Assembly: GCA_050250895.1 (NCBI GenBank)
Contig: JBFWNU010000001.1
Location: 1,000,008-1,064,007 of the forward strand
DNA: 64,000 nt
Source: Vulcanimicrobiota bacterium
Lineage (GTDB): Bacteria > Vulcanimicrobiota > Xenobia > Xenobiales > JADMJV01
Reading direction: 5' to 3'
Position 1 is the first letter of the stretch; every line of letters begins with the position of its first letter. Below the pieces are notes generated by a model that worked only from the letters and a program-made list of their open reading frames with translations, had not been told where the DNA came from and did no database searches. Positions 12,977-24,763 of the stretch are shown piece after piece. A program made the translations under genes and the position numbers.

Positions 12977-14380
12977 ATGACAAAACAACTCGAACACACT
13001 CTGACCAGCTTCCTGATGGCTTGCTGGTCATGGACCCTGGCCCACCCGGGTTTACTCCTGCTCCTGGTGGCCATCATCCTTTTGTGGCGACGCCTTGAAC
13101 CGCAGGCGGCCGCCCGGCTCCTTCGGTGGAGCGCCCTGACCGTGGTCCTGGTCGTGCTGGTCAAGCTGCTGGTGAGCGTGGGCTGGGCCACCCTCGACCG
13201 CTTCGACCAGAGTCGTAACGCGCTCTATTCGACGGGCCAGACCGATTCGGGCCAGGACACCATTCAATACGCACCTTCAGCCGCTGTCGAAGAGATCGCT
13301 ACTCGCCAGCAGAGTCTCTATTTCTCGCCCCGCGCCTTCGAGATGTCCGGGCTGGCCGCCTTACCCGGGTGGAACGGCCAGGATGTGGTCGAGTCGCCCT
13401 CGATCATCGACATCGAAGATCGCCTCGAGCAATCGGGTCAAACCACCTGGGTGCGTCGCAAACTGGTCTTCCGCAGCTATCTCGGGGTGCCCCTCGAGTT
13501 GAGCGACCTGAAACTGGACCTTCGCTTCGTGCCCGACTCGGTGGCGTATCAATCCCACTTCCAGGCGAGCTATCTATTCCACAATCCTCTCGACCGCAAA
13601 GCCCGGCTCCGTTTCAACTTTCCTTTGCCCCTCAATAGCGGAACCCTCAATGACTTCCAGATGACCGTCAATGGAGAGAAGTCGCCGGCCATCTGGGAAG
13701 GCGAGGTCGAGGCCGGTGGACAGGTCAAGGTCGAGGTTTCTTACCGCAACCGGGGCCGGCGTTCCTGGACCTATTCGCCCACCCAACAGCGGGCCAGCAT
13801 CGGGCAATTGACCCTGAAACTCACCTCTGACAACCAGGAGATCAAGTTTCGCCGAGACAGCCTCTTTCCCACCGACGGCAGCGCCGGCGATTGGCACTGG
13901 AAACTCTCCGACGTCATCACTTCGCAAGACATCAGCCTCTTCTTTCCCACCACCTCCAAACGCGAACGAATGGCCAGGGTGCTCGAGTTTGCCCCCCTGG
14001 GAATGGTGCTGCTGCTGGTGCTGGCGATGATGGTGAAAGAACACGACCCGGGTAGGTTGGCTTTGCTGGCCCTGACCTACGCCGGCTCGCTCGTGCTCAC
14101 CAGTTACCTCTGGACCTATCTGGGCTTCACCGCCGCCGTCACCCTCGGCGCCCTGGTGGGAGCCGGCGTCACCGCGGCCACCCAACAAAACCGTCTACTG
14201 GTGGCGGCCTTCGCACTGTGGCTCTGCTTCTGCTGGTCGGGGCAGACGGGGCTGCTGCTGACGGTGGCGGGATTGGGGGCTCTGACCTGGTGGGGACAAA
14301 CCGGCAATCTGGCGGTCAACTCTGGCAACAAACACGCCACCCAGGTCAGCTCCCCATCAGCCACGCTCGATAGTCTATAG
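12977..14380 (+). CDS. CreD-like inner membrane protein
   Basis: N-terminal TMs, a large beta-rich soluble domain and about 5-6 C-terminal TMs; divergent from the two-component pair. Confidence 0.55.
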   Translation: MTKQLEHTLTSFLMACWSWTLAHPGLLLLLVAIILLWRRLEPQAAARLLRWSALTVVLVVLVKLLVSVGWATLDRFDQSRNALYSTGQTDSGQDTIQYAPSAAVEEIATRQQSLYFSPRAFEMSGLAALPGWNGQDVVESPSIIDIEDRLEQSGQTTWVRRKLVFRSYLGVPLELSDLKLDLRFVPDSVAYQSHFQASYLFHNPLDRKARLRFNFPLPLNSGTLNDFQMTVNGEKSPAIWEGEVEAGGQVKVEVSYRNRGRRSWTYSPTQQRASIGQLTLKLTSDNQEIKFRRDSLFPTDGSAGDWHWKLSDVITSQDISLFFPTTSKRERMARVLEFAPLGMVLLLVLAMMVKEHDPGRLALLALTYAGSLVLTSYLWTYLGFTAAVTLGALVGAGVTAATQQNRLLVAAFALWLCFCWSGQTGLLLTVAGLGALTWWGQTGNLAVNSGNKHATQVSSPSATLDSL

Positions 14381-14440: not shown

Positions 14441-15706
14441 GTGCCTAGATATCGTTATGTAGCCGTCGACCCTGAAGGGACGACGCACCGGGGCGAGGTC
14501 GATATCTCCGAGCTGGAAGCGGTGCTGGGACGAGCAGCGCGCGGCTGGAAGATCCTTGATGTCCAAGAAGTCGGGGGGGCGGCCTCACCAGCCGAGCGCC
14601 CGCGCCAGGCCAGCCCCTCCACTGCCTCCAGTTCTGTCTCTGCTGAACCAGAGACCCCGCCGTTCTGGGCTCGAAGCCGGGTGCCGTCGAGAGTGGTGGC
14701 GACCTTTCTGCAGCAACTCGGCATGGCCTTGAAGAATGGCGTTTCGCCGGGTCAGGCCATCCATCTGCTGGCCCAGGAGTCTGAGTTTCCTCAGTTCCAG
14801 CGAGTGGTCGAGCAGATCCTTGACGACATCACCATGCGGGGGCGCTCGCTTTATCTGGCCATGGCGCGCCACCCCAAGGTCTTTCCCGCCACCTGCTTGA
14901 TGCTGGTGCGCTCGGGCGAAGAAGGGGGCGATGTGGCCGGTCGCCTGGAGCGGGCGAGCGATCTCATCATGCGCTCCAGCGACCGCGAAAAAGAGGTGCG
15001 CCGCGCTCTCAGCGGCCCCATGGTCACCGCCTCGATGGGAATCGTCATGCTGTTCGCGGTGGTGCGCTTCGTGGTCCCCCAGATACTTCAGCTCTACAAC
15101 GACATGGATGCCGACTTGCCCTGGATCTCGAGGCTGTGCATCATGGTGGTTCACATCCTCAACCACCCCCTGACCCTGGTCGGTCTGGGCGTGACCGCCA
15201 TCGGAGTCTACGTCTTCCGGAGCACCCTGCGCGAGATGCTGTTCGAGACCGGTCTGTTGATCCCCGGAGTGGGCGAACTGCTCGGTAGCTTTCTCGGCTC
15301 GCAATTCTGCGAGGTGCTGGCCTACCTTTATCGCGACGGCATTCCCATCGGACGGGCCATCGGCATGCTCGAGAAAACCGCCGAGTTCAAGCTGCACGCC
15401 CGCTATTTGCGCCTGTGTCGCAAACGTCTCGAGAATTCGGGCAGCCTCAGCGAGGCCGTTTGCGAGATCCCCTATTTTCCGCGCATGCTCCACTCGCTGG
15501 CGGCGGTGGCCGAAGAGACTGGTAGCACCGACACTCTCTTCGCTACGGGCGCTCGCATGATGGAAGAAGAGGTCGAGCTGGTCTTGACGCAATTGGTGAC
15601 CATCATCGAGCCCGTCACCGTATGCGTCCTCGGAGTGGCCACCGGCTTCTTCTTTATCGGACTCTTCTTGCCCGTCTACGGGATTCTCTCCAAGCTCGGC
15701 GGCTGA
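14441..15706 (+). CDS. Type II secretion F / PilC-family platform protein
   Basis: MPRYRYVAVD...G start, two GspF repeats (GEEGG, AEETG), IIEP and FLPVY. Confidence 0.92.
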   Translation: MPRYRYVAVDPEGTTHRGEVDISELEAVLGRAARGWKILDVQEVGGAASPAERPRQASPSTASSSVSAEPETPPFWARSRVPSRVVATFLQQLGMALKNGVSPGQAIHLLAQESEFPQFQRVVEQILDDITMRGRSLYLAMARHPKVFPATCLMLVRSGEEGGDVAGRLERASDLIMRSSDREKEVRRALSGPMVTASMGIVMLFAVVRFVVPQILQLYNDMDADLPWISRLCIMVVHILNHPLTLVGLGVTAIGVYVFRSTLREMLFETGLLIPGVGELLGSFLGSQFCEVLAYLYRDGIPIGRAIGMLEKTAEFKLHARYLRLCRKRLENSGSLSEAVCEIPYFPRMLHSLAAVAEETGSTDTLFATGARMMEEEVELVLTQLVTIIEPVTVCVLGVATGFFFIGLFLPVYGILSKLGG

Positions 15707-15743: not shown

Positions 15744-18104
15744 GTGGAAGCCGACATTCGCATTCTGGTGCTCGAAGACGATGCGGTCATGCGCGAGACT
15801 TTGCGAGAGGCCCTCGAAGAAGAGGGTTATCAAGTCGAGGCCGTAGCCTCGGGTGTGAAGGCCATCGAACAAGCCCGCGGGTCGGCCTTCGACCTGATCG
15901 TAGCCGACGTTCGTATGGAAGGTATCGACGGCCTCGACACCATCGAGCAGGTGCGCGACATCGCACCCGGCATTCGCAGCCTCGTGGTGACCGGCTACTG
16001 CAACGAGGCCGACACCATTCGCGCTCTCAAGTTGGGGGTGGGAGACTACATTCAAAAGCCGTTCCAGCTTCAGGACTTTCTCGACTCGGTCCGCCGACAA
16101 GTGCTGCAAAAGAAAGTCGATAGCGAGCGCCAGGCCGACCGCCAGGCTTTTGCCCGGGCCCTGCGCCTGGCTCTCGAGGCGCGCGCCCGCCTGTACGACC
16201 TCGAAGTCGGCGGGTGCTATCCCAAGGTCGAGGGGCTGCAGAAGCTGGGCCCCTGGGCGCGAGCCCTGGCCCAAGAATCGGGCTTGAGCGACGAAGAGTG
16301 CCTCAGGGTCGAGATCCTGGCCTATCTGCGGGGGCTCGAGAGCCAGCAGCCCGACTTCTCGCTCGAGGGCCTGGAGGACTCTCTCGACGAGAACACCCGG
16401 GCCGCTCTGGGCCAACTTCGCCACGCTTCGCCCGAACTGGTACAGGCCCAACTGGCAGCCGCCATCCTGGCTTTCGGAGCCCTCGAGGAAGCCGACGCCG
16501 AAAGCTTGCTAGAAAGCGCCATTCCTCCCCTTTGGGTCGAGAGCTTGCAGCGTCTGGAAAGCGAGGGACCAAACCAGACCCAGCCTCGCCGGGGCGGACA
16601 GTCCGGCTCGCGCCGCCGGGGTCTGCTGGCCCTGGGTCAGGCCCTGGAGGGCCGCGGCGACGGCGACGGGGCGGCCACCGCCTATCAGGCCGTGATCAAA
16701 GAATCGGAAGAAGGCGCCGAGACCATCGAGGCCCGTCTGGGCCTGGCTCGCCTGGCCCGCCAATCCGGCCAGCGCCTTGAGGCCCTGGAGGAGGCCCGCC
16801 GGGCGGTCGAGAGCGCCGCCCGCCAGGGACCCAACAGTCTGGCCCTGACGCAGGTCGAGGCTGCCTTTCTGGCTTTCGAGCAAGACCGGCAATGGGCTGT
16901 CGACCAGTTGACCCGGGCCCGGGCCGGCTTCGAAAAATTCGGCCAGGCGGCCGGACTGGCCAAGGTGGATCTGGCCCTGTGGGTGGCCCGTGGCGACGGC
17001 CAGGCCGCTCCCGGCGAGGCCCTGCGCCGCCTGACCCTGCCGCTCAACAGTGATGAACTTGCACTGTGTGCCCGCTGGCTGGCGCCCCAACTGCTGGAAC
17101 GGTGTCCCGACCAGAGCGAGGCCGAGCAGGCTCTTTTTCAGATTGCCCGGCTCTTTCCCGGAGAGCTACAACGCATGTTGCACCGGCGCCAACTCTCGGC
17201 CGGGGCCCGGGCTAACCTGGTGCCGGTGCTGGCCCGGGCCGGCGGGGCGGCGGCCGCTGGCCTGCTCGAACTGCTCAGCCAGGATGGCGACCCCGACGTG
17301 CTAGCCGCCCTCCAGCGCCACAAGCCGGGGGCTGAATCGGGGCTGCCGCTAATCCGCCTGTATACGCTGGGGGCTTTCGCCATCTATCGCGGTGAAGAGC
17401 GAATTCCCGACAAGACCTGGCGCCGCAAGAAGAACCGCCTGTTTCTGGCTCGGTTGGCGGCTGCCCCAGGAGCGGTCCCGGAAGACGTCTTGATCGAAGA
17501 GTTCTGGCCGGGCGATCCCGATAAGGGCCGGCAGAACATCTACTCGGCCACCTCGGTGGCCCGCAAGTGCCTGGCTCCTTCGGACGGCGAGCGGCTGGAA
17601 GTGGTCGATCGCTCGGGCCTGGGCCTGAGTTTGTCGACGCAAATCCCGCTCTGGCACGATCTCAGCGAAGTTCAGGGCGAATTCGAACAAGCCCGCCGCT
17701 GCCAGGATGCCGACCGGGTCCAGGAGAGCTATCCCCATCTCAAGCGCGTCCACAAGCTCTACCGAGGTCCCTATCTAGAGGGCTGCTTCATGGACTGGGC
17801 CGTCGACATCCGGCGCAACCTCGAGCACCTGCTGTTGCAGACCTTCGGCCGATTGTGCGGCTGGCTCGAAGAACAGCGCCGGGGCGACGAGCTCGGCGAG
17901 TTCTCGCGCTGGATGCTCGAGGTCGACCCCTGCTCGCAGCAGGCCCACGTATCGCTGATGCGCTCGCTACTGCTGGAGGAACGTCCTGAGGAGGCGGTCA
18001 GACATTTCGAGCGGGCTCGCTTGACGCTGGCCCGCGAACTGGCCATGGAACCCTCCATCGAGCTACTGCGCGAACACCAGCGCGCCCTGCTGAGCCTCGA
18101 CTAA
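15744..18104 (+). CDS. Response regulator: REC + TPR/HEAT-like helices + SARP/BTAD domain
   Basis: LEDD...ADVRMEG...KPF; C-terminal LYTLGAF, EEFWP, LYRGPYLEG and EPSIEL. Confidence 0.85.
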   Translation: MEADIRILVLEDDAVMRETLREALEEEGYQVEAVASGVKAIEQARGSAFDLIVADVRMEGIDGLDTIEQVRDIAPGIRSLVVTGYCNEADTIRALKLGVGDYIQKPFQLQDFLDSVRRQVLQKKVDSERQADRQAFARALRLALEARARLYDLEVGGCYPKVEGLQKLGPWARALAQESGLSDEECLRVEILAYLRGLESQQPDFSLEGLEDSLDENTRAALGQLRHASPELVQAQLAAAILAFGALEEADAESLLESAIPPLWVESLQRLESEGPNQTQPRRGGQSGSRRRGLLALGQALEGRGDGDGAATAYQAVIKESEEGAETIEARLGLARLARQSGQRLEALEEARRAVESAARQGPNSLALTQVEAAFLAFEQDRQWAVDQLTRARAGFEKFGQAAGLAKVDLALWVARGDGQAAPGEALRRLTLPLNSDELALCARWLAPQLLERCPDQSEAEQALFQIARLFPGELQRMLHRRQLSAGARANLVPVLARAGGAAAAGLLELLSQDGDPDVLAALQRHKPGAESGLPLIRLYTLGAFAIYRGEERIPDKTWRRKKNRLFLARLAAAPGAVPEDVLIEEFWPGDPDKGRQNIYSATSVARKCLAPSDGERLEVVDRSGLGLSLSTQIPLWHDLSEVQGEFEQARRCQDADRVQESYPHLKRVHKLYRGPYLEGCFMDWAVDIRRNLEHLLLQTFGRLCGWLEEQRRGDELGEFSRWMLEVDPCSQQAHVSLMRSLLLEERPEEAVRHFERARLTLARELAMEPSIELLREHQRALLSLD

Positions 18105-18108
18105 GGGC

Positions 18109-18801
18109 TTAGGGCAGGCTGGTCAGCCAGTTGCCCAGAGCAGTGATTTCGGCGTCGGAAATGGAGTTGGCGGGATTGTTGACCGGGTCATAGAGAGGAT
18201 CGGTCTCTTCGAAATAGATTTGCATGGCCCCGTAAGTCCCGCCGTAGTTGTCGACCAGCGCCGGGTCGCGAACGGACTGCTCGACGTAGGCGTCGGGGGC
18301 CAATCCTCCGGTCCAACCGGCGGGTCGCGAGCCGATGCCGGTCAGAGGCACCAAACCGGGAGCGTCGGCATAGCCCATCGAGGGCAAGGAGTGGCAACTC
18401 CAACAAGCCAGGCGTTCGAATGCCGCCTGGCCGGGGTCCTTGGGTGGCAGCTTGCTGCGCAAAAAGCGAGTATTCCGCGTCCCGTGAGTGGTGTGTCTAA
18501 CCTCGACCTCGACCACCGTCAAGTTAGGGTCGCTGCCGAAATTTGGCTGGGTGGTCACGTTATAGGAATACTCGTTGGCGGGGGGGTCGAAAAAGCCGGA
18601 GGAGGGCCCGACGCTGGGAAAGGGAGCCGTCAGCAGTTCACTCACCTTTGAGTTACTGTAGGAGACCAGTTCTGAGGTCTGGCTCACGTTGGCCGTCTGG
18701 CGGGCTCCCAGGATAAAGAGGTTCATCACGAAGGCAGCCGTGATGAACATCAAAAACATCGCCAGCATCAACTCGGGAATGGTCAGACCGCGACGGCTCA
18801 T
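18109..18801 (-). CDS. PilV/GspI-like minor pilin fused to a class I cytochrome c domain
   Basis: Class III signal SRRG|LTIPE followed by a hydrophobic helix; C-terminal G..AF...CWSCH, YVEQSVRDP, GAM (distal Met candidate) and ISDAEITALGNWL. Confidence 0.85.
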   Translation of the reverse strand: MSRRGLTIPELMLAMFLMFITAAFVMNLFILGARQTANVSQTSELVSYSNSKVSELLTAPFPSVGPSSGFFDPPANEYSYNVTTQPNFGSDPNLTVVEVEVRHTTHGTRNTRFLRSKLPPKDPGQAAFERLACWSCHSLPSMGYADAPGLVPLTGIGSRPAGWTGGLAPDAYVEQSVRDPALVDNYGGTYGAMQIYFEETDPLYDPVNNPANSISDAEITALGNWLTSLP

Positions 18802-19406
18802 ATCGGTTTGTTGACTCCGATCTCCAGCACCACTGGCTTGCCGATCTGATTGACGTAAAGCTCACAGCGCACCACATCGGCACCGCCGACGACCTGGCGC
18901 GAAACCAGAAACTCGCGCACGTCGCGCACCAGGATCTTGCCGGTGGGCAACTGCGAGGGTAGCGGACTCAAACTATAACTGTCATAGACCATCTTGCGCA
19001 GGCTTCCCGGAGAGGTGGCTGTGGCCGGGACGAACCAGTAGCCCGTGATGATCGAATCGGGGAAACCCGGATAGCCCTCGCGACGATGCCATCCGCTGAT
19101 GCGAAACTCCTGAGTCACATCCGCCCGAGTCGGAGTCGAGGTCAGCGCCGTCGGGGGCAAGCCGAGGGAAAGGCTCAAAGCCGCCTGGGGGTCAGCCGTA
19201 CTCACGTCGCGGGCGATCTCGTCGAGAGCCATGGTGGCTTCGCGAACCGCTTGCACTTTCTCCGAAGAGCGGGCCTGGGTGCGAAATCCCAACACCAGGG
19301 CACGCCCCACCATGGTCATGAAGATGGCCATCAGAGCCCCGGCGACCAGGACCTCGATGAGACTGATACCGCGACTCTTAACGTTGATCATCGTAGAGCT
19401 TCGCAT
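18798..19406 (-). CDS. PilW/GspJ-like minor pilin
   Basis: KSRG|ISLIEVLVA prepilin motif and ALDEIARDV helix; ATGA overlap with the next gene. Confidence 0.85.
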   Translation of the reverse strand: MRSSTMINVKSRGISLIEVLVAGALMAIFMTMVGRALVLGFRTQARSSEKVQAVREATMALDEIARDVSTADPQAALSLSLGLPPTALTSTPTRADVTQEFRISGWHRREGYPGFPDSIITGYWFVPATATSPGSLRKMVYDSYSLSPLPSQLPTGKILVRDVREFLVSRQVVGGADVVRCELYVNQIGKPVVLEIGVNKPI

Positions 19407-19803
19407 ATCCTCCCAGCGGCATCACCAGACGCCGTTCGGTCACCACCGAACCGTCCTCGGCCAGGATTCGCCCCGTGACCGCATAAGTGTTGGGATCGCT
19501 CAGAGCCTCGATCTCGAACTCTTCGGTGGCCGACAAAGTCACCACCACGGGATTGCCCGGGGCCCCATAGATGGGGGCCGTGCGCGGGGTCTGGCGGTCG
19601 AGATAGTTGTAGTACTCGATGCCGGAGCGGGCCAGCGCCTGGGCTCTGGCCTCGGCTTGCTGGTGGCGTTGAAAACCCAGGTCTCGCTGAACATAGGTTA
19701 GAAAGCCTAGCCCTAGCAAGAGCAATAACGAGATCAGGCCGAGGGCCGTGATCAGGGCCGCGCCACGCGCCCCCCACTGGCTCTTCCCACGCATGCCTGT
19801 CAT
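19378..19803 (-). CDS. PilX/GspK-like minor pilin
   Basis: RG|AALITAL (no Glu5, typical of PilX/GspK) and A..LA.SG.EY. Confidence 0.8.
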   Translation of the reverse strand: MTGMRGKSQWGARGAALITALGLISLLLLLGLGFLTYVQRDLGFQRHQQAEARAQALARSGIEYYNYLDRQTPRTAPIYGAPGNPVVVTLSATEEFEIEALSDPNTYAVTGRILAEDGSVVTERRLVMPLGGYAKLYDDQR

Positions 19804-19876
19804 TTTATCAGATTCCCGTCGAATTTGCAGCCACCCCTAGACGGGACGGGGCCAACTGGATGTCAAAGCATGGGTT

Positions 19877-20560
19877 ATGCGATGGACCGCCTGGCTCCTA
19901 CTTTTGGCCGTGCTGACGGGCTGCTCTGGCGGCCCGGTCGAACAGCCCCAGAGCCGCGCGACTCCAGAGGCGGCGGTTACGGCGGGGCTCACCTCCGGCG
20001 GACCTGACCTGGCCCCCCTCCCCCCCGCGCCGGCCCACGGTGGGAGCGGCGGGGTCTCGCGGCCAGACGATCCTCCCATCGACTACCATTCCCCTCCGGT
20101 CGACTCGGCCCAGTTTCCGGCCGGCCAGCGCCCTGAGTCTGACCAGACGCCCCCTCCCAGCGAAGAGAGCCCCGAGCAGTGGCGCCAAAACCACAAGGTC
20201 CAGGCCCGGGGGCTGAAGGCCTATCCTGACCTGCTTGGCTATGACCAGGTCGTGGCCAAGTTTCCGCCCGGTTCGTCCATGGCCTCGGTGGTGCGGGGCG
20301 AGAAATTGTACACCAGCTATTGCAAGCAGTGTCACGGAACCGAAGGGTTGCCCGACAAGAAAAGCGAGCTGTTAGCCCGCTATCGCATGGCCGATCTGCG
20401 CCAGCCCCTGACCTACAAATTCGGTTCCGACGAGCGGGCTGTATACCGCAGCATCGCCTTCGGTGTGCCCAGCGCCCCGATGGGCTACTTCAAAGAGTTG
20501 CTGACCGACCAGGATATCTGGGATCTGGTCTACTACCTGCAGAGCAAGACCGGGGGCTAA
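19877..20560 (+). CDS. Lipoprotein mono-heme cytochrome c with Pro-rich linker
   Basis: Lipobox LTGC, about 80-aa Pro/Ser-rich linker, GEKLY...CKQCH, APMG and LTDQDIWDLVYYL. Confidence 0.9.
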   Translation: MRWTAWLLLLAVLTGCSGGPVEQPQSRATPEAAVTAGLTSGGPDLAPLPPAPAHGGSGGVSRPDDPPIDYHSPPVDSAQFPAGQRPESDQTPPPSEESPEQWRQNHKVQARGLKAYPDLLGYDQVVAKFPPGSSMASVVRGEKLYTSYCKQCHGTEGLPDKKSELLARYRMADLRQPLTYKFGSDERAVYRSIAFGVPSAPMGYFKELLTDQDIWDLVYYLQSKTGG

Positions 20561-22992
20561 CCCTCGGCCAGCACCGGCAGGGCCACCGTGAAGGTAGCGC
20601 CCTGGCCGGGCACCGACTCGACGCTGAGTTCGCCCTGATGGCCACTCACCAACTGATGGGTCACGGACAAGCCCAGCCCGGTGCCCTTGCCCACTTCTTT
20701 GGTGGTGAAAAAAGGCTCGAAAATCCGGGCCTGGACCTCGGGTGCGATACCCGGACCGCTGTCGCGAACCTGCAACAGGACCCGGCCCTGTCGCTGCCCG
20801 GTGCGAATCTCGATGAGCCCTCCTCCGGCCATGACCGCGTCACGAGCGTTGAGCACCAGGTTGGTAATGACCTGCTGCAGTTCGTTCTTATTGGCCAGCA
20901 CCTGAGGCACCGCCTCGAGCTGGTCACGCACCTCGACACCCTCCTGACGAATCTGGCCCCCCAACAGCTCGAGGGTGTCGCGCACCACTTCGTTGACATC
21001 GACCGGCTTCTTGCCTGGGCCGGCCTCACGCGAGTAATAGAGTAGCTTGGCGATGATCTCCTTGGCATTCTGAGCGGCCTGCTCGGCCGTAGCGAGGCGC
21101 TTGGGGACCTTCTCGAACTTCTCCTTATCGAGGCTGCGCCGGGCCATCTGCAGCTGCAACATGACCGCCGCCAGAGGCGAATTGAGTTCGTGGGCGATGC
21201 CAGCGGCCAGCTGGCCTACGGCAGCCAGCTTGCTTGATTGAATCACCTGGGCCTGGGATTCTTGAATCTGGCGTCGGGCCTCGAGCACATCTTGATAGAG
21301 CTGGCAATTGCGCAAGATGACGGCCGCGTGCACAGCCGTCAGATAGAGCATATCCAGGCCCGCCTGGTCAAAGACCGAAGGCTGACTGTGCACCACCAGC
21401 AAGGCCCCTACCACCGAATCCTCCAGCACCATGGGCACGATCAGCAAGCTGGCGAAGTCCCGGTAAGGTGTTCCGAAACGGGATTCACCCACGTTTTCGA
21501 ACAGTAGCGGTCGCTGGCTCTGGCTGACAGCCTGGCACAACTCGGCGATAGCCTGAGGATTCCAGCCCTCCTGACCCGGCCAGATACGAGTCGGGCGACC
21601 ATCCGGCTCGAGGATAGCGCCGGCCTGATGCACCAGAGTCTCCTCGATCAACAGCTGGAGCCGCTCCAACACGTCCTCTCGTCGCAGTGTGCTGCCCAGG
21701 GCTCGCGAGCCGTTGAGCAGCAGGTCCAGTCGCTGATTCCAGGCGGCCAGCTCCTGATTGGCCGAGGCGTGCAACTCGAGGGCATCTTGCAACTCCTGAT
21801 AGTTGCGGGCCGCCTGCAGAGCCACCGAGGCCTGGTCGGCGATAATGGCCAGCAGATGCCGTTGCTGCTTGGACACCTGTAAGGGCCGCCTATCACCTAG
21901 ATAAAGAACGCCCTGTTGATAGATGGGCAGGGCCACCGCCCAGGCCTCGCCCTCGAGCAGACGCGGTCGCGACAGATGCTCGGCCCGGCCCTCGATGATC
22001 AGCCCCCGCTGCCAGCATTCATCGACCACCGGCTCGCTCAACTTGAGCAACGAATAGTCACGCAGTCGGTCCTCGCGAGGGCTGTGATAGCAGACCGGAA
22101 CCGGACCCAATCCCTGATTGAGGAAGATGGCGACCGTTTGACAGCCGAGCGTGCGCCGCACCATCTCGACGGTGGTGTTCAACACGCCCTGAACCTCGAG
22201 GCTACGGGCGAACAGATGCGAGAGCTCTTCCATGAGCACCCGTTCCTCGACCTTGTGGGCCAGGGCGTCCTGGTTCTCTTCTAGCCTGGCCTTGACTTGC
22301 TCGAGCTTGCGCTTGTCTTCCTTCTGCTCGCGCTCCATCACCGCCATGCGTCGAGTCTCGCGCACCTGGAGGGCCTGGGCAGCCACGAAGTGGAAGACGG
22401 AAAAAAGCGGCAGGGTCCAGAGAAAATTGACCAGGCCCCCACCCAGAAAGAGGGCCAGCGCGACTCCCGTCACCACCTCGCCCAGGGCCAACTGCAAGCG
22501 GACAGGCCCATAGGCGGCCAACTCCTTGAGGTCAAACCCTTCATCCTCGATCGCTAGTAGACTCGGCACCAGGCGGGTCGTGCCGAGGTAGACCAGTCCG
22601 GCTCCCAGACCCGCCCAGGCCCCCAGCGCAGCGGTGGTCATCAGGGTCACCACCACCAGGGCGGCCAGGGCCGGAAAGATATCGGCCACCGATTCACGCC
22701 AGATCGCCGCGGCCCGCGGCCCGCCTCGCCCTAGAGCTCGTCCCCCCACCCCTACCACCACCAGCGCGGTGGCGGCGGCCGCGCCCTGGGTCAAAGCCGT
22801 GGCAAGATAGGCTGCGAACGCAGTGCTCAGAAAGCCGAAACAGGGCGTGCGCACCGCCGTCAGCTCGAGCGTCAACGCCAGGGCCACCAGGACCACCAGA
22901 TCCACCCCGCCGCTGGGGTGCTCTGACAGACAAAAGCACAGCACCGCCAGGGCTATACTTAAGAAAGTGAAGAACCCCAGACGGGGAGTCAC
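20557..22992 (-). CDS. Membrane histidine kinase with two GAF domains
   Basis: Multi-TM N-terminus, two GAF-like repeats, AGIAHELNSP, NLVLNA and FEPFFTTK...GTGLGL. Confidence 0.93.
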   Translation of the reverse strand: MTPRLGFFTFLSIALAVLCFCLSEHPSGGVDLVVLVALALTLELTAVRTPCFGFLSTAFAAYLATALTQGAAAATALVVVGVGGRALGRGGPRAAAIWRESVADIFPALAALVVVTLMTTAALGAWAGLGAGLVYLGTTRLVPSLLAIEDEGFDLKELAAYGPVRLQLALGEVVTGVALALFLGGGLVNFLWTLPLFSVFHFVAAQALQVRETRRMAVMEREQKEDKRKLEQVKARLEENQDALAHKVEERVLMEELSHLFARSLEVQGVLNTTVEMVRRTLGCQTVAIFLNQGLGPVPVCYHSPREDRLRDYSLLKLSEPVVDECWQRGLIIEGRAEHLSRPRLLEGEAWAVALPIYQQGVLYLGDRRPLQVSKQQRHLLAIIADQASVALQAARNYQELQDALELHASANQELAAWNQRLDLLLNGSRALGSTLRREDVLERLQLLIEETLVHQAGAILEPDGRPTRIWPGQEGWNPQAIAELCQAVSQSQRPLLFENVGESRFGTPYRDFASLLIVPMVLEDSVVGALLVVHSQPSVFDQAGLDMLYLTAVHAAVILRNCQLYQDVLEARRQIQESQAQVIQSSKLAAVGQLAAGIAHELNSPLAAVMLQLQMARRSLDKEKFEKVPKRLATAEQAAQNAKEIIAKLLYYSREAGPGKKPVDVNEVVRDTLELLGGQIRQEGVEVRDQLEAVPQVLANKNELQQVITNLVLNARDAVMAGGGLIEIRTGQRQGRVLLQVRDSGPGIAPEVQARIFEPFFTTKEVGKGTGLGLSVTHQLVSGHQGELSVESVPGQGATFTVALPVLAEG

Positions 22993-23879
22993 GAGGCAGG
23001 CTCTCGCCAGATGCGGTTGTAAAGTTGCTCGAGGGCGGGCGAGTGCTCGCGCAAAGCCACACTGCGAGCATACAAGAAGGCGGCCAGCTTGAGCTGCTCG
23101 GGCGAGACGACCGAGTTGAGTACGTTGCGATAAAGACAGGCAAAGTCGTTGGGAGCCACCTGGCTGGATTTGACCACCGCGTACATGTCCGTGTTCGAAA
23201 GGGCCTGGATGAACTCGGTGACTTGCTGGTATCCGCCCGCCAGCTGGCTGAACTCGCTACCCGTGGTAGCACTGTTTTGCAACAGCCCTTCGCGCTTGAC
23301 CTCGAGGATGTGGACCTTTTCCCAACTGGCCCGAGCCTGGTCGGGTCCCAGGAGGCGCGAGCGCACCCCGACGTAAAAACAGCGGAACGCCTCTTCGCGT
23401 TGGGTCTCGAGCGAGTTTTGCCCGGTGCGCGCCGCCGCCTGGGTCACCGCCTCGACCATCTTGCGCGCACCGGCTTTGACCTTGTCGAACAGCTGAGAAT
23501 AACGGCTGCGTTCTTGCTCGGCCGAGAGCACCCGCTCGACAGCCGCGAGAAAGTCGTCAAGAGAGAACGGCTTATGAAGGTAGTCCTCGGCCTGCACCTT
23601 CATGGCCCGGGTGGGCGCGTCCTGACTAGCATAACCGGTAATCACGATGGAGCGGGCATTGGGCTGCAGAGCCTTGAGGCAACCCAGGCACTCGATGCCA
23701 TCCATCCCTTCCATGCGCACGTCAGCCACCATCAAGTCAAAGCGATGCATCCGAGCCAACTCGAGGGCAGCTTTGCTGCTGGGGGCGGCGAAGACGGTGT
23801 AGTCTTCCTCCTCAAGGGCTTCTTCGAGAGTTGCCCGCAGAATGTCGTCGTCTTCGAGGACCAGGATTCGATGTGCCAC
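22989..23879 (-). CDS. Response regulator (REC + unknown C-terminal domain)
   Basis: LEDD, ADVRMEG.DG and KPF; 4-bp overlap with the kinase. Confidence 0.88.
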   Translation of the reverse strand: MAHRILVLEDDDILRATLEEALEEEDYTVFAAPSSKAALELARMHRFDLMVADVRMEGMDGIECLGCLKALQPNARSIVITGYASQDAPTRAMKVQAEDYLHKPFSLDDFLAAVERVLSAEQERSRYSQLFDKVKAGARKMVEAVTQAAARTGQNSLETQREEAFRCFYVGVRSRLLGPDQARASWEKVHILEVKREGLLQNSATTGSEFSQLAGGYQQVTEFIQALSNTDMYAVVKSSQVAPNDFACLYRNVLNSVVSPEQLKLAAFLYARSVALREHSPALEQLYNRIWREPAS

Positions 23880-24022: not shown

Positions 24023-24763
24023 ATGTGCTACGCCAATCTTAGCTTAAATCTCAACTTCGGCTTCGGCCCCGGTGGCTGCGTCACGCCGCCCCACCACCAC
24101 GGTCCCCACCATCATCATCACGGTTCTCAAGGTCCCCATCACCACCATCCCGGACCCCACGGTCCCCATCACCACCATCCCGGACCCCACGGTCCCCATC
24201 ACCACCATCCCGGACCCCACGGTCCCCATCACCACCACAGCGGCAATCTCAGCGACGCGGTGGTGGGCCACAAGCCTGGTTTCTTCGGCTGCCGCGATAC
24301 GAAGGGCTACGGCCTCGACCTCAACAACAACGGCCGCTATGACGCCGGCCGTGACGGAGTGCTCGGTTTTGACTTCAATCGCAACGGCCAGATCGACCGT
24401 AAGGAGATCGAGCGCTCTCGCGAAGCCCTGAAGGCCTTCGGCGGCAACTATGACCTCAACGGCGACGGCCGCACTTCGCTGTGCGAAAAGATGCGCGGCA
24501 ACTCTCTGCAGAAACGCATGCAGGGCATCGACACCAATCATGACGGCCGCTTGAGCGCCGGTGAAATCGCCAGCGGTGGAGGACGCGTGCTAGTCGACCA
24601 GAACCGCGACGGCAACTTCTCGCCCAACGAGTCCTTCAGCCCGTTCAACATTCCGACCCCCGGCTTCGGTCGCGGTCGACTAGACTTCGTCGATCCGCAA
24701 TACAATCACAACCAGGTAAGCCACGGTTGGTCCTGGGGCCACCCGCCCTACTTCGGTTGCTAG
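24023..24763 (+). CDS. His/Pro/Gly-repeat protein with multiple EF-hand-like Dx[DN]xDG loops
   Basis: GPHHHHPGPH repeats; DLNNNG, DFNRNG, DLNGDG, DTNHDG and DQNRDG; GGAGG RBS. Confidence 0.8.
   Translation: MCYANLSLNLNFGFGPGGCVTPPHHHGPHHHHHGSQGPHHHHPGPHGPHHHHPGPHGPHHHHPGPHGPHHHHSGNLSDAVVGHKPGFFGCRDTKGYGLDLNNNGRYDAGRDGVLGFDFNRNGQIDRKEIERSREALKAFGGNYDLNGDGRTSLCEKMRGNSLQKRMQGIDTNHDGRLSAGEIASGGGRVLVDQNRDGNFSPNESFSPFNIPTPGFGRGRLDFVDPQYNHNQVSHGWSWGHPPYFGC
24101..24237 (+). repeat. 30-bp intragenic tandem repeat
   Basis: GGTCCCCATCACCACCATCCCGGACCCCAC perfect at 24131, 24161 and 24191; partial at 24221; degenerate at 24101. Confidence 0.95.

Follow-up and report, generated by a model that had tools for sequence, protein, structure and literature searches.

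Among the closest described relatives of the protein considered here are the modular pilins, a widespread kind in which a pilin module bears a grafted domain whose exposure at the filament tip has been proposed; 264 architectures are listed in Dataset S1 of Raynaud et al. 2021 (PMC8179133), and Streptococcus sanguinis supplies two examples, PilB and PilC, whose grafted modules are a vWA domain and a lectin, respectively. The protein in question is encoded by gene C of a five-gene cassette found in a 64,000-nucleotide stretch of DNA of a Vulcanimicrobiota bacterium (assembly GCA_050250895.1, contig JBFWNU010000001.1, positions 1,000,008 to 1,064,007), the whole of which is called the window below. 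Apart from gene C, the cassette comprises two genes for putative minor pilins, A and B, gene D for a putative lipoprotein cytochrome c, and a GspF/PilC-type platform gene. Protein C shares with the modular pilins a pilin module with a class III signal, a short linker, and a domain not specific to filament biology (PMC8179133), but its grafted module is a c-type heme domain, and the entries IPR009056, IPR036909, PF00034, and PF13442 are absent from Dataset S1 (PMC8179133). Moreover, the carrier is here an I-type subunit, whereas PilA, the I-like pilin of S. sanguinis, is not modular (PMC10191384). Compared with the modular pilins of S. sanguinis, the cassette adds a platform gene of its own and a second cytochrome.

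The I and J subunits nucleate the tip complex of type II secretion systems (T2SS) and type IV pili. The likeness of the cassette to the GspI-J-K and XcpV-W-X complexes (PDB 3ci0, 2ret, 5bw0, 3nje) lies in the I and J folds, in a third subunit devoid of the glutamate at position +5 (Glu+5), and in the arrangement of three overlapping genes in one operon, while the differences are that A has only 141 amino acids (aa) and lacks the alpha-domain, that the gene order is K-J-I, and that the heme domain sits on the I-type subunit. No homologue of GspG, GspH, GspE, GspD, GspC, GspL, or GspM was detected in the cassette with the queries used.

A cytochrome c linked to pilus biology is known from Myxococcus xanthus, namely TfcP, described by Herfurth et al. 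2022 (PMC8833165) as a soluble protein with His/Cys ligation and a potential of about -310 mV, not located in the pilus, which stabilises PilY1.1 and acts on the binding of calcium by PilY1. Like the cytochromes of the cassette, it is a monoheme cytochrome c encoded together with minor pilin genes and tied to the priming or tip complex (PMC8833165). It differs from C, which is fused to a pilin with a class III signal and has a Met ligand, and from D, which has a lipobox and either Met or His as the ligand. No PilY1 gene was seen in the cassette.

As to gene D, it resembles the tethered monoheme cytochromes in its lipid anchor, long flexible linker, and class I heme domain. Rhodobacter c_y, Paracoccus c552, and the Gram-positive lipoprotein c551 belong to this group; they shuttle between bc-type complexes and oxidases and are not known to be linked to pilin genes. 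One of them, Paracoccus c552, is found also among the fold matches of C, by its soluble domain plus linker (3m97, Z 5.8). The Sulfolobus bindosome, finally, consists of class III-signal functional proteins on the periplasmic side and a dedicated assembly system, without a long pilus; it is archaeal, has a sugar-binding cargo, and uses its own ATPase. It is named here as a comparable small type IV-like assembly system (cf. PMC3047682).

The pilin-cytochrome fusion and its partner genes

Judging from its sequence and its structural model, protein C is predicted to be a conserved GspI-type modular pilin with a canonical His/Met class I cytochrome c domain. It begins with a class III leader followed by a hydrophobic helix (MSRRG/LTIPELMLAMFLMFITAAFVMNLF, the slash marking the cleavage site) and ends with ...SDAEITALGNWLTSLP. 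The AlphaFold2 model has a mean predicted local distance difference test score (pLDDT) of 91.2 and a predicted template modelling score (pTM) of 0.68; a helix of residues 8-58 and four strands between residues 67 and 116 are followed by a helical heme domain, so that two confidently folded modules are joined by a linker of approximately residues 117-122.

Fold matches were sought by a structural search against representative structures (all-against-representatives). Residues 35-119 of C align (VIA-align) with GspI from the GspK-I-J complex of enterotoxigenic Escherichia coli (3ci0_I, Z 9.9, root-mean-square deviation (rmsd) 2.6, 79/83 residues), with EpsI (2ret_A, Z 9.8), and with XcpV (5bw0_B, Z 8.3), and on these grounds the pilin part is classed as I-type. 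For residues 119-230 the best matches were 1w2l, which is the cytochrome c domain of caa3 oxidase (Z 8.6), and 7zs0, the diheme cytochrome Kustd1711 of Kuenenia (Z 8.4). Foldseek likewise listed an Xcp pseudopilus chain and EpsI (2ret_A, probability 1.00, TMt 0.71); with the whole C model it gave nothing at E<=0.001, and most of its top rows were tyrosine phosphatases with an rmsd >11, which were disregarded. The ESM Atlas search yielded no usable match. When the sequences of the PDB were searched by profile, the matches were 7zs0 (2.8e-18), with an alignment covering the region of the Met ligand, a cytochrome c555 construct (7e-14), and 1w2l, the cytochrome c domain of caa3 subunit II (3.8e-13). 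The heme module has stand-alone paralogues of 136-192 aa.

In single-sequence comparisons with Pfam the two halves of C gave marginal scores, each below the gathering cut-off: Cytochrom_C (PF00034) with E 8.9e-4 and 21.0 bits vs 21.3 over residues 123-229, and N_methyl (PF07963) with E 0.052 and 13.6 bits vs 21.2. No NCBIfam family was matched by C at E<=0.1, the gspI model TIGR01707 included, and hence C may be regarded as a structural homologue of GspI that is not a member of the family by the curated sequence model. Neither did B or A reach the NCBIfam models of GspJ and GspK, respectively.

Protein B also has a class III leader with a hydrophobic helix (KSRG/ISLIEVLVAGALMAIF). In Pfam it matches N_methyl (E 4.3e-4, 20.2 bits vs a cut-off of 21.2) and, below the cut-off, ComGE (1.8e-3); its NCBIfam matches, to ComGE, XpsI, GspJ, GspI, and the Verru_Chthon protein C, are N-terminal and sub-threshold, that to gspJ having an E value of 0.056, far under the cut-off. 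In its AlphaFold2 model (pLDDT 87.3, helix 16-70) residues 45-202 adopt a GspJ fold: the best match is XcpW (3nje_A, Z 10.7, rmsd 2.9, 118 aa), followed by EpsJ (2ret_B, Z 10.6), Thermus TTHA1219 (Z 9.9), and GspJ (3ci0_J, Z 9.4), while the next match scores 7.1. Glu+5 (E18) of B is conserved in >=90% of 16 sequences (alignment A4). Protein A (GARG/AALITALGLISLLLLLG) matches nothing in Pfam, N_methyl included, and matches the NCBIfam T2SS_GspK model with E 3.2e-5 and 23.6 bits vs a cut-off of 130, residues 13-65 being aligned with positions 2-54 of the 307 of the model. It lacks Glu+5, as do GspK-type subunits (alignment A3), and it also lacks the GspK alpha-domain; a match to full-length GspK was not obtained. 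A Verru_Chthon cassette family was considered for A and B and rejected, the match being restricted to the N-terminal helix (23.8 vs 256.5 bits for B and 13.4 vs 332.3 for A). On the basis of the GspK model match and the fold matches, the triplet may be read as K-like (by its N-terminus only), J-type, and I-type with cytochrome c.

Protein D carries between its lipobox and its heme domain a low-complexity tether of ca. 115 residues rich in Pro, Gly, and Ser. The heme domain matches Cytochrom_C PF00034 above the cut-off (2.6e-9, 38.7 bits) and Cytochrome_CBB3 PF13442 (9.3e-9), and it belongs to the CcoP/c6-like group. In the alignment of D orthologues (A5) C149, C152, and H153 are invariant in 15/15 sequences and the lipobox Cys is conserved in >=90%, while the position of the sixth ligand is occupied by Met in 12/15 and by His in 3/15. 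The latter three orthologues, in which P.MG is changed to PPHG, are found at L024:7759-8322, L025:11424-12101, and L028:7352-8077 (relatives G005, G007, and G015), and the change suggests His/His ligation and a lower potential in this sub-lineage.

The two cytochromes differ also in charge. At all 15 loci at which they are paired, C has a heme domain of negative net charge (-3 to -19, with a mean of -8.1) and D one of positive net charge (+2 to +7, with a mean of +3.7). A survey of 17 c-type domains in the genome showed a net positive charge for D and a single further domain, while none was as acidic as that of C. An acidic C facing a basic D is the pattern that would be expected of an electron-transfer pair.

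The location of the genes is given in Table 1. A preliminary description of this DNA, made from the letters alone, had named three overlapping minus-strand genes with class III signals, a divergent gene for a lipoprotein cytochrome c 73 bp away, with LTGC, a tether, and CKQCH, and a pilC/gspF gene 2.4 kb beyond the triplet. All three statements agree with the open reading frame (ORF) list and with Pfam: genes A and B overlap by 29 nt, B and C by 4 nt, and the end of the platform gene lies 2403 bp from the end of C. Its view of the last gene as a pilin body of ca. 120 aa followed by a complete class I cytochrome c was borne out by the folds and ligands described above, with the HMM matches falling short of the gathering cut-offs as indicated. 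Its assignment of the triplet to the minor pilins stood for I and J (Z 9.9 and 10.7), and for K only as regards the N-terminal residues. The gap between A and D presumably houses a shared promoter.

Table 1. Features of the cassette, with positions counted from the first nucleotide of the window
Feature	Position	Strand	Evidence
Gene A, GspK-like minor pilin, 141 aa	19378..19803	-	ORF, leader ...WGARG/AALITALG
Gene B, GspJ-type minor pilin, 202 aa	18798..19406	-	ORF, class III signal ...KSRG/ISLIE
Gene C, GspI-type pilin fused to cytochrome c, 230 aa	18109..18801	-	ORF, MSRRG/LTIPE
Gene C pilin module, residues 1-120	18442..18801	-	class III signal, alpha1 helix, four-stranded sheet, GspI type
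Gene C heme module, residues 121-230	18109..18441	-	class I cytochrome c, CWSCH 133-137, Met193, terminal helix 216-228
Gene D, lipoprotein cytochrome c, 227 aa	19877..20560	+	lipobox LTGC (Cys16), CKQCH 149-153
A-D divergent intergenic region, 73 bp	19804..19876	strandless	coordinates from ORF list
GspF/PilC-type platform gene, 421 aa, two T2SSF domains	14441..15706	+	Pfam T2SSF 8.3e-47

Conservation of the cassette and multiplication of its platform

The host of the fusion is a little-known bacterium of soil and sludge with a genome of 9.5 Mb in 17 contigs (referred to below as G000, its contigs as C1, C4, and C7), belonging to the phylum Vulcanimicrobiota, which equals Eremiobacterota; the sole cultured member of the phylum is diderm and piliated (PMC9758169). 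A HMMER search with C among 1.84 billion representative proteins gave 46 matches at E<=1e-3, 17 of them at <=1e-10. Thirty-two of the 46 were retrieved, and 31 of these carry CxxCH, comprising 30 whole or 5'-cut fusions of ca. 200-300 aa and one cytochrome-only fragment (P0020, 130 aa), the exception being an unrelated repeat protein (P0029). All the clusters checked for the family matches were singletons (10/10). A word-indexed protein search returned only C itself with C as the query and 2 matches with B; the profile of the C family gave 7 matches in the same collection, none of them new, the first match from outside the family being a cytochrome c oxidase subunit II.

When C was aligned with 26 of the retrieved sequences, which are 21-44% identical to it (27 sequences in total), no variation was seen at C133, C136, H137, and S176, and conservation was >=90% at E10 (Glu+5), M193, Y172, and P180. 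This indicates that selection acts on the pilin signature as well as on the heme-attachment motif and the distal Met, and that, the marginal Pfam scores of C notwithstanding, the pattern is not due to chance. The profile of the family was searched in 301 genomes of the phylum, the best ten candidates per genome being considered, and the counts per family are thus lower bounds. Matches to both halves were found in at least 17 of the 301 genomes, all in three families, with the fusion in at least 13/16 genomes of f1, 2/5 of f2, and 2/3 of f4; the seventeenth genome, G003, has a 296-aa form with a long linker. Among the best ten candidates per genome, matches to the pilin half only were found in family f3, while f15 (207 genomes) and f20 (22 genomes) gave no match. 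Outside the phylum, a scan of genome contigs by a single peptide pattern, which returned 2 loci, gave one weak match (39% over C residues 75-131, E 8e-4), which may be due to chance, in a contig of an Actinomycetota metagenome-assembled genome (L019, CAWFSH010000010.1, 8001-8153).

Synteny was followed with phmmer, using the window proteins, at 18 loci of 16 genomes, G040 being left out as its contig has only 2.3 kb. The K-like gene was found at 17/18 loci, the J-type gene at 17/18, the lipoprotein cytochrome c gene at 15/18, and the GspF-type gene at 16/18; the misses occurred at the second copy in G010 (L034), on a 9-kb contig (L031), at a contig end (L040), and in G001, which has no GspF within 9 kb. 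The remaining flanking genes differ among the loci (helicase, argH, acyl-CoA dehydrogenase, kinase). The conserved unit is thus one of five genes, without a motor, a channel, or a major pilin. An assembly chimera or a unique fusion was rejected, the fusion recurring in 16 genomes with intact frames.

The platform protein scores 161 bits against the GspF model TIGR02120, whose cut-off is 424. Against the cassette-linked GspF orthologues of the relatives its median score is 257 bits, as compared with a median of 84 bits against 70 paralogues of its own genome, of which the best (251 bits) belongs to the sister cassette described below and the next scores 133; these scores mark the platform as specific to the cassette and indicate that it has been inherited together with its pilins. 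The genome holds 149 T2SSF domain matches, corresponding to 71 GspF-like genes, and an ORF survey found 211 pilin-like ORFs, with 54 of the 71 platforms having such ORFs within 6 kb, mostly one to three. Loci exemplifying the expansion of the platforms in G000 are C1:2275667-2276893, C1:2692428-2693522, and C7:19322-21812. The expansion of T2SSF is common to the families with large genomes (at least 46 matches in f1, f2, and f19 and at least 34 in f4 and f11), while family f15 has 0-8. Among the pilin-like ORFs of >=240 aa in the genome, CxxCH was found in C alone.

The sister cassette (G000:C1:2690299-2693522) has the same gene order, with K of 129, J of 191, I of 395, and GspF of 364 aa, and its I-type pilin (L043) bears at its end a beta-propeller of NHL repeats. 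Relatives also have pilin-NHL proteins, 413-431 aa long in G018 and G033 and of a similar kind in G008 and G019. One I-type carrier has thus taken up at least two different modules. An NHL propeller on the same carrier in the sister cassette, together with a sister GspF, is what would be expected of a displayed module.

Several parts which the cassette lacks are present elsewhere in the genome. It has one prepilin peptidase (Peptidase_A24, PilD; G000:C1:2278795), CcsA and ResB homologues of the System II cytochrome c maturation pathway (G000:C4:181746-183592), 32 T2SSE-domain matches, approximately nine of which are full-length PilB/GspE-like and none of which lies in the window, and two secretins.

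The preliminary description was confirmed in its observations and supported in part in its interpretation. The ccm/ccs and pilD genes that it proposed to look for in the genome are there in the form of System II CcsA/ResB and the single Peptidase_A24; the same architecture and neighbourhood recur elsewhere, at the 18 loci of 16 genomes, all of one Vulcanimicrobiota class; the homologues keep CxxCH (27/27 aligned); and the neighbouring lipoprotein cytochrome c is syntenic in the relatives, at 15/18 loci. Its statement that no characterised pilin is known with a fused c-type heme is matched by the full-text literature searched, in which no pilin-cytochrome fusion or heme-bearing pilin is described, subscription journals and most supplements lying outside the scope of that search.

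Readings of the cassette

The favoured reading, to which a probability of about one in two is assigned, is that the cassette is a five-gene type IV filament module, consisting of a platform, K-like, J-type, and I-type minor (pseudo)pilins with a heme on the I-type subunit, and a tethered lipoprotein cytochrome c as the redox partner. The architecture suggests an undescribed filament device carrying a redox centre, and we infer the following order of processing, heme attachment, assembly, extension, and electron exchange. The prepilins A, B, and C would enter the inner membrane and lose their leaders, up to Gly-1, through cleavage by the single PilD; of this, the signal motifs and the gene for PilD are observed. 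System II would attach heme to CWSCH in the periplasm, a step for which the sequences provide the motif, a Met as ligand, and genes for CcsA and ResB. The I and J subunits would pair and be joined by K, as in the GspI-J-K and XcpV-W complexes, and the I-J-K complex on its own platform would form the priming or tip complex, in keeping with the observed folds and the co-inheritance with the platform. An ATPase encoded in trans, perhaps with a shared major pilin, would raise the complex on a short filament or stub, which would keep the acidic heme domain at a distance from the inner membrane and bring it nearer to the outer membrane or cell surface. Swinging on its tether, the basic heme domain of D would ferry electrons between the pilin heme and respiratory enzymes of the membrane. 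The kinship of the C heme module with the cytochrome c of the caa3 oxidase operon, set out below, suggests a high-potential carrier able to feed the oxidase. Such a device would be a periplasm-spanning or surface-exposed redox contact point and not a conductive wire. It was also considered whether a long retractile pilus with one heme at its tip might serve bulk extracellular electron transfer, which was judged, by reasoning on energetic grounds, to be unlikely; since such a heme would hardly carry a useful current, a short periplasm-spanning stub, surface contact, or sensing fits better.

Studies of type IV filaments in extracellular electron transfer have been concerned mainly with the question of conductive pili or cytochrome filaments, and a pilin with a fused heme would be a third arrangement, extending the idea of modular pilins from binding modules to a redox cofactor within a compact five-gene system. 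If the heme is displayed and active, the family would lend itself as a natural scaffold with which redox centres could be mounted on filaments; with an inert heme, this would be the second, independent recruitment of a cytochrome into pilus-tip biology, after TfcP.

Several observations weigh against the favoured reading. The single-sequence Pfam scores of C are slightly below the cut-offs, and the GspK resemblance of A is confined to the N-terminus (53 residues). The D orthologues of three relatives have His in place of Met as the sixth ligand. The 15 charge pairs come from related genomes and are not independent, and acidic cytochromes are common. No RNA run was among the sequencing runs listed, 5 in number, each of which contains <=0.07 of the sampled words. 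TfcP is an example of a cytochrome c of a minor-pilin cluster that need not carry electrons (PMC8833165). Finally, phmmer searches with two PilB/GspE-type ATPases, PilT, both secretins, and PilD of the genome found no ATPase, PilT, secretin, or PilD at the 18 loci, and no further ORF of >=90 aa with a class III signal, and so no major pilin, was found there; because of these absences the cassette itself gives no sign of filament building.

The last of these points speaks also for the alternative that survives best, although it is considered unlikely, namely that the pilin part is a mere anchor and C, never polymerised, is a cytochrome c of respiration, fixed to the inner membrane on its outer side and feeding the caa3 oxidase together with D. 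Respiratory carriers anchored in this way are known in the cytochromes c_y and c552 and in the lipoprotein cytochromes of Gram-positive bacteria. The closest paralogue of the C heme module in the genome is a 189-aa cytochrome c (30% identity, E 1e-10), whose gene is flanked by coxIII and Caa3_CtaG within the operon of the caa3 oxidase; the heme module thereby falls in a family of high-potential carriers for aa3-type oxidases. The nearest matches from outside the family are, in addition, cytochrome c domains of oxidase subunit II. The operon itself (G000:C1:172900-180300, L049) codes for a fused CtaA-CtaB (COX15 + UbiA, 632 aa), a lipoprotein CoxII-cytochrome c, CoxI, CoxIII, the 189-aa cytochrome c, and Caa3_CtaG. 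A simple anchor, however, has no need of the J-type and K-like pilins present at 17/18 loci or of a platform co-inherited at 16/18, nor would it be expected to keep the complete GspI fold of the pilin body, and the NHL propeller borne by the same carrier in the sister cassette suits display better than respiration.

It is improbable, though slightly less so than the sensor reading dealt with below, that the hemes are structural, as in TfcP, and stabilise a small domain which binds a ligand or the tip complex or acts on them as a chaperone, the whole being an adhesion or secretion device without electron carriage. A precedent exists in TfcP, a cytochrome c of a minor-pilin/PilY1 operon that is needed for pilus formation and judged not to be a carrier (PMC8833165); the known modular pilins mostly bear binding modules (PMC8179133), and the NHL propeller of the sister cassette is a typical binding fold. 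TfcP, however, is an unfused protein with a type I signal, its heme is ligated by His/Cys, its C-terminal helix is charged, and it is reported only from Myxococcales (PMC8833165). The ligands of the two cytochromes of the cassette are, in contrast, canonical (His/Met in C, Met or His in D), both proteins are akin to working electron carriers, and cytochromes of opposite charge travel together from locus to locus.

The least probable alternative, a heme acting as a sensor of a small ligand or of the redox state, periplasmic or external, that gates the engagement of the tip and platform cartridge with shared motors, would agree with the regulator genes next to the cassette in the window and with the need to choose somehow among 71 platform paralogues, but those regulators are not syntenic at the 17 loci of the relatives, the conserved partner D is left unexplained, and six-coordinate His/Met hemes are typically carriers and not ligand sensors.

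The reading of the cassette as a filament module with a redox partner may be extended, tentatively and with more doubt than belief, to a 'cartridge' system of the large-genome Vulcanimicrobiota, in which dozens of co-inherited platform-plus-tip cassettes (71 GspF-like genes in this genome) would plug into a few shared ATPases and two secretins, each presenting a different module on its I-type pilin. The cytochrome cartridge would put a heme at the distal end of the filament, where it would be charged or discharged by the basic tethered lipoprotein. The cell would thus have a 'contact electrode', or a probe of redox state, extending through the periplasm or even past the outer membrane. If this were true, C would be the first pilin carrying electrons through a bound cofactor. 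The expansion of platform-plus-minor-pilin cassettes, large and unexplained, is in any case of interest in a phylum with one cultured member.

Neighbouring genes in the window

The interval between the platform gene and the pilin triplet is occupied by a gene for a response regulator-TPR-BTAD protein (15744-18104, plus strand, 786 aa), and gene D is followed by genes for a membrane GAF-GAF histidine kinase (20557-22992) and a response regulator (22989-23879), both on the minus strand. Immediately upstream of the platform gene lies a gene for a 467-aa multi-pass membrane protein (12977-14380, plus strand) that belongs to no Pfam family (VIT only, E 0.039). These regulators and the membrane protein were considered as parts of the module and rejected, there being no orthologue at the 17 loci of the relatives: the regulators gave there only receiver- or kinase-domain matches (E 1e-6 to 1e-10) and the 467-aa protein none.

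Further downstream, an ORF of 246 aa (24023-24763, plus strand), which has no homologue at the cassette loci of the relatives, codes for a protein in which a nearly uniform His-rich unit (PGPHGPHHHH) is repeated four times and precedes five EF-hand/dockerin-type loops rich in Asp (DLNNNGRYD, DFNRNGQID, DLNGDGRTS, DTNHDGRLS, and DQNRDGNFS). Its product is a candidate secreted metal- or calcium-binding protein.

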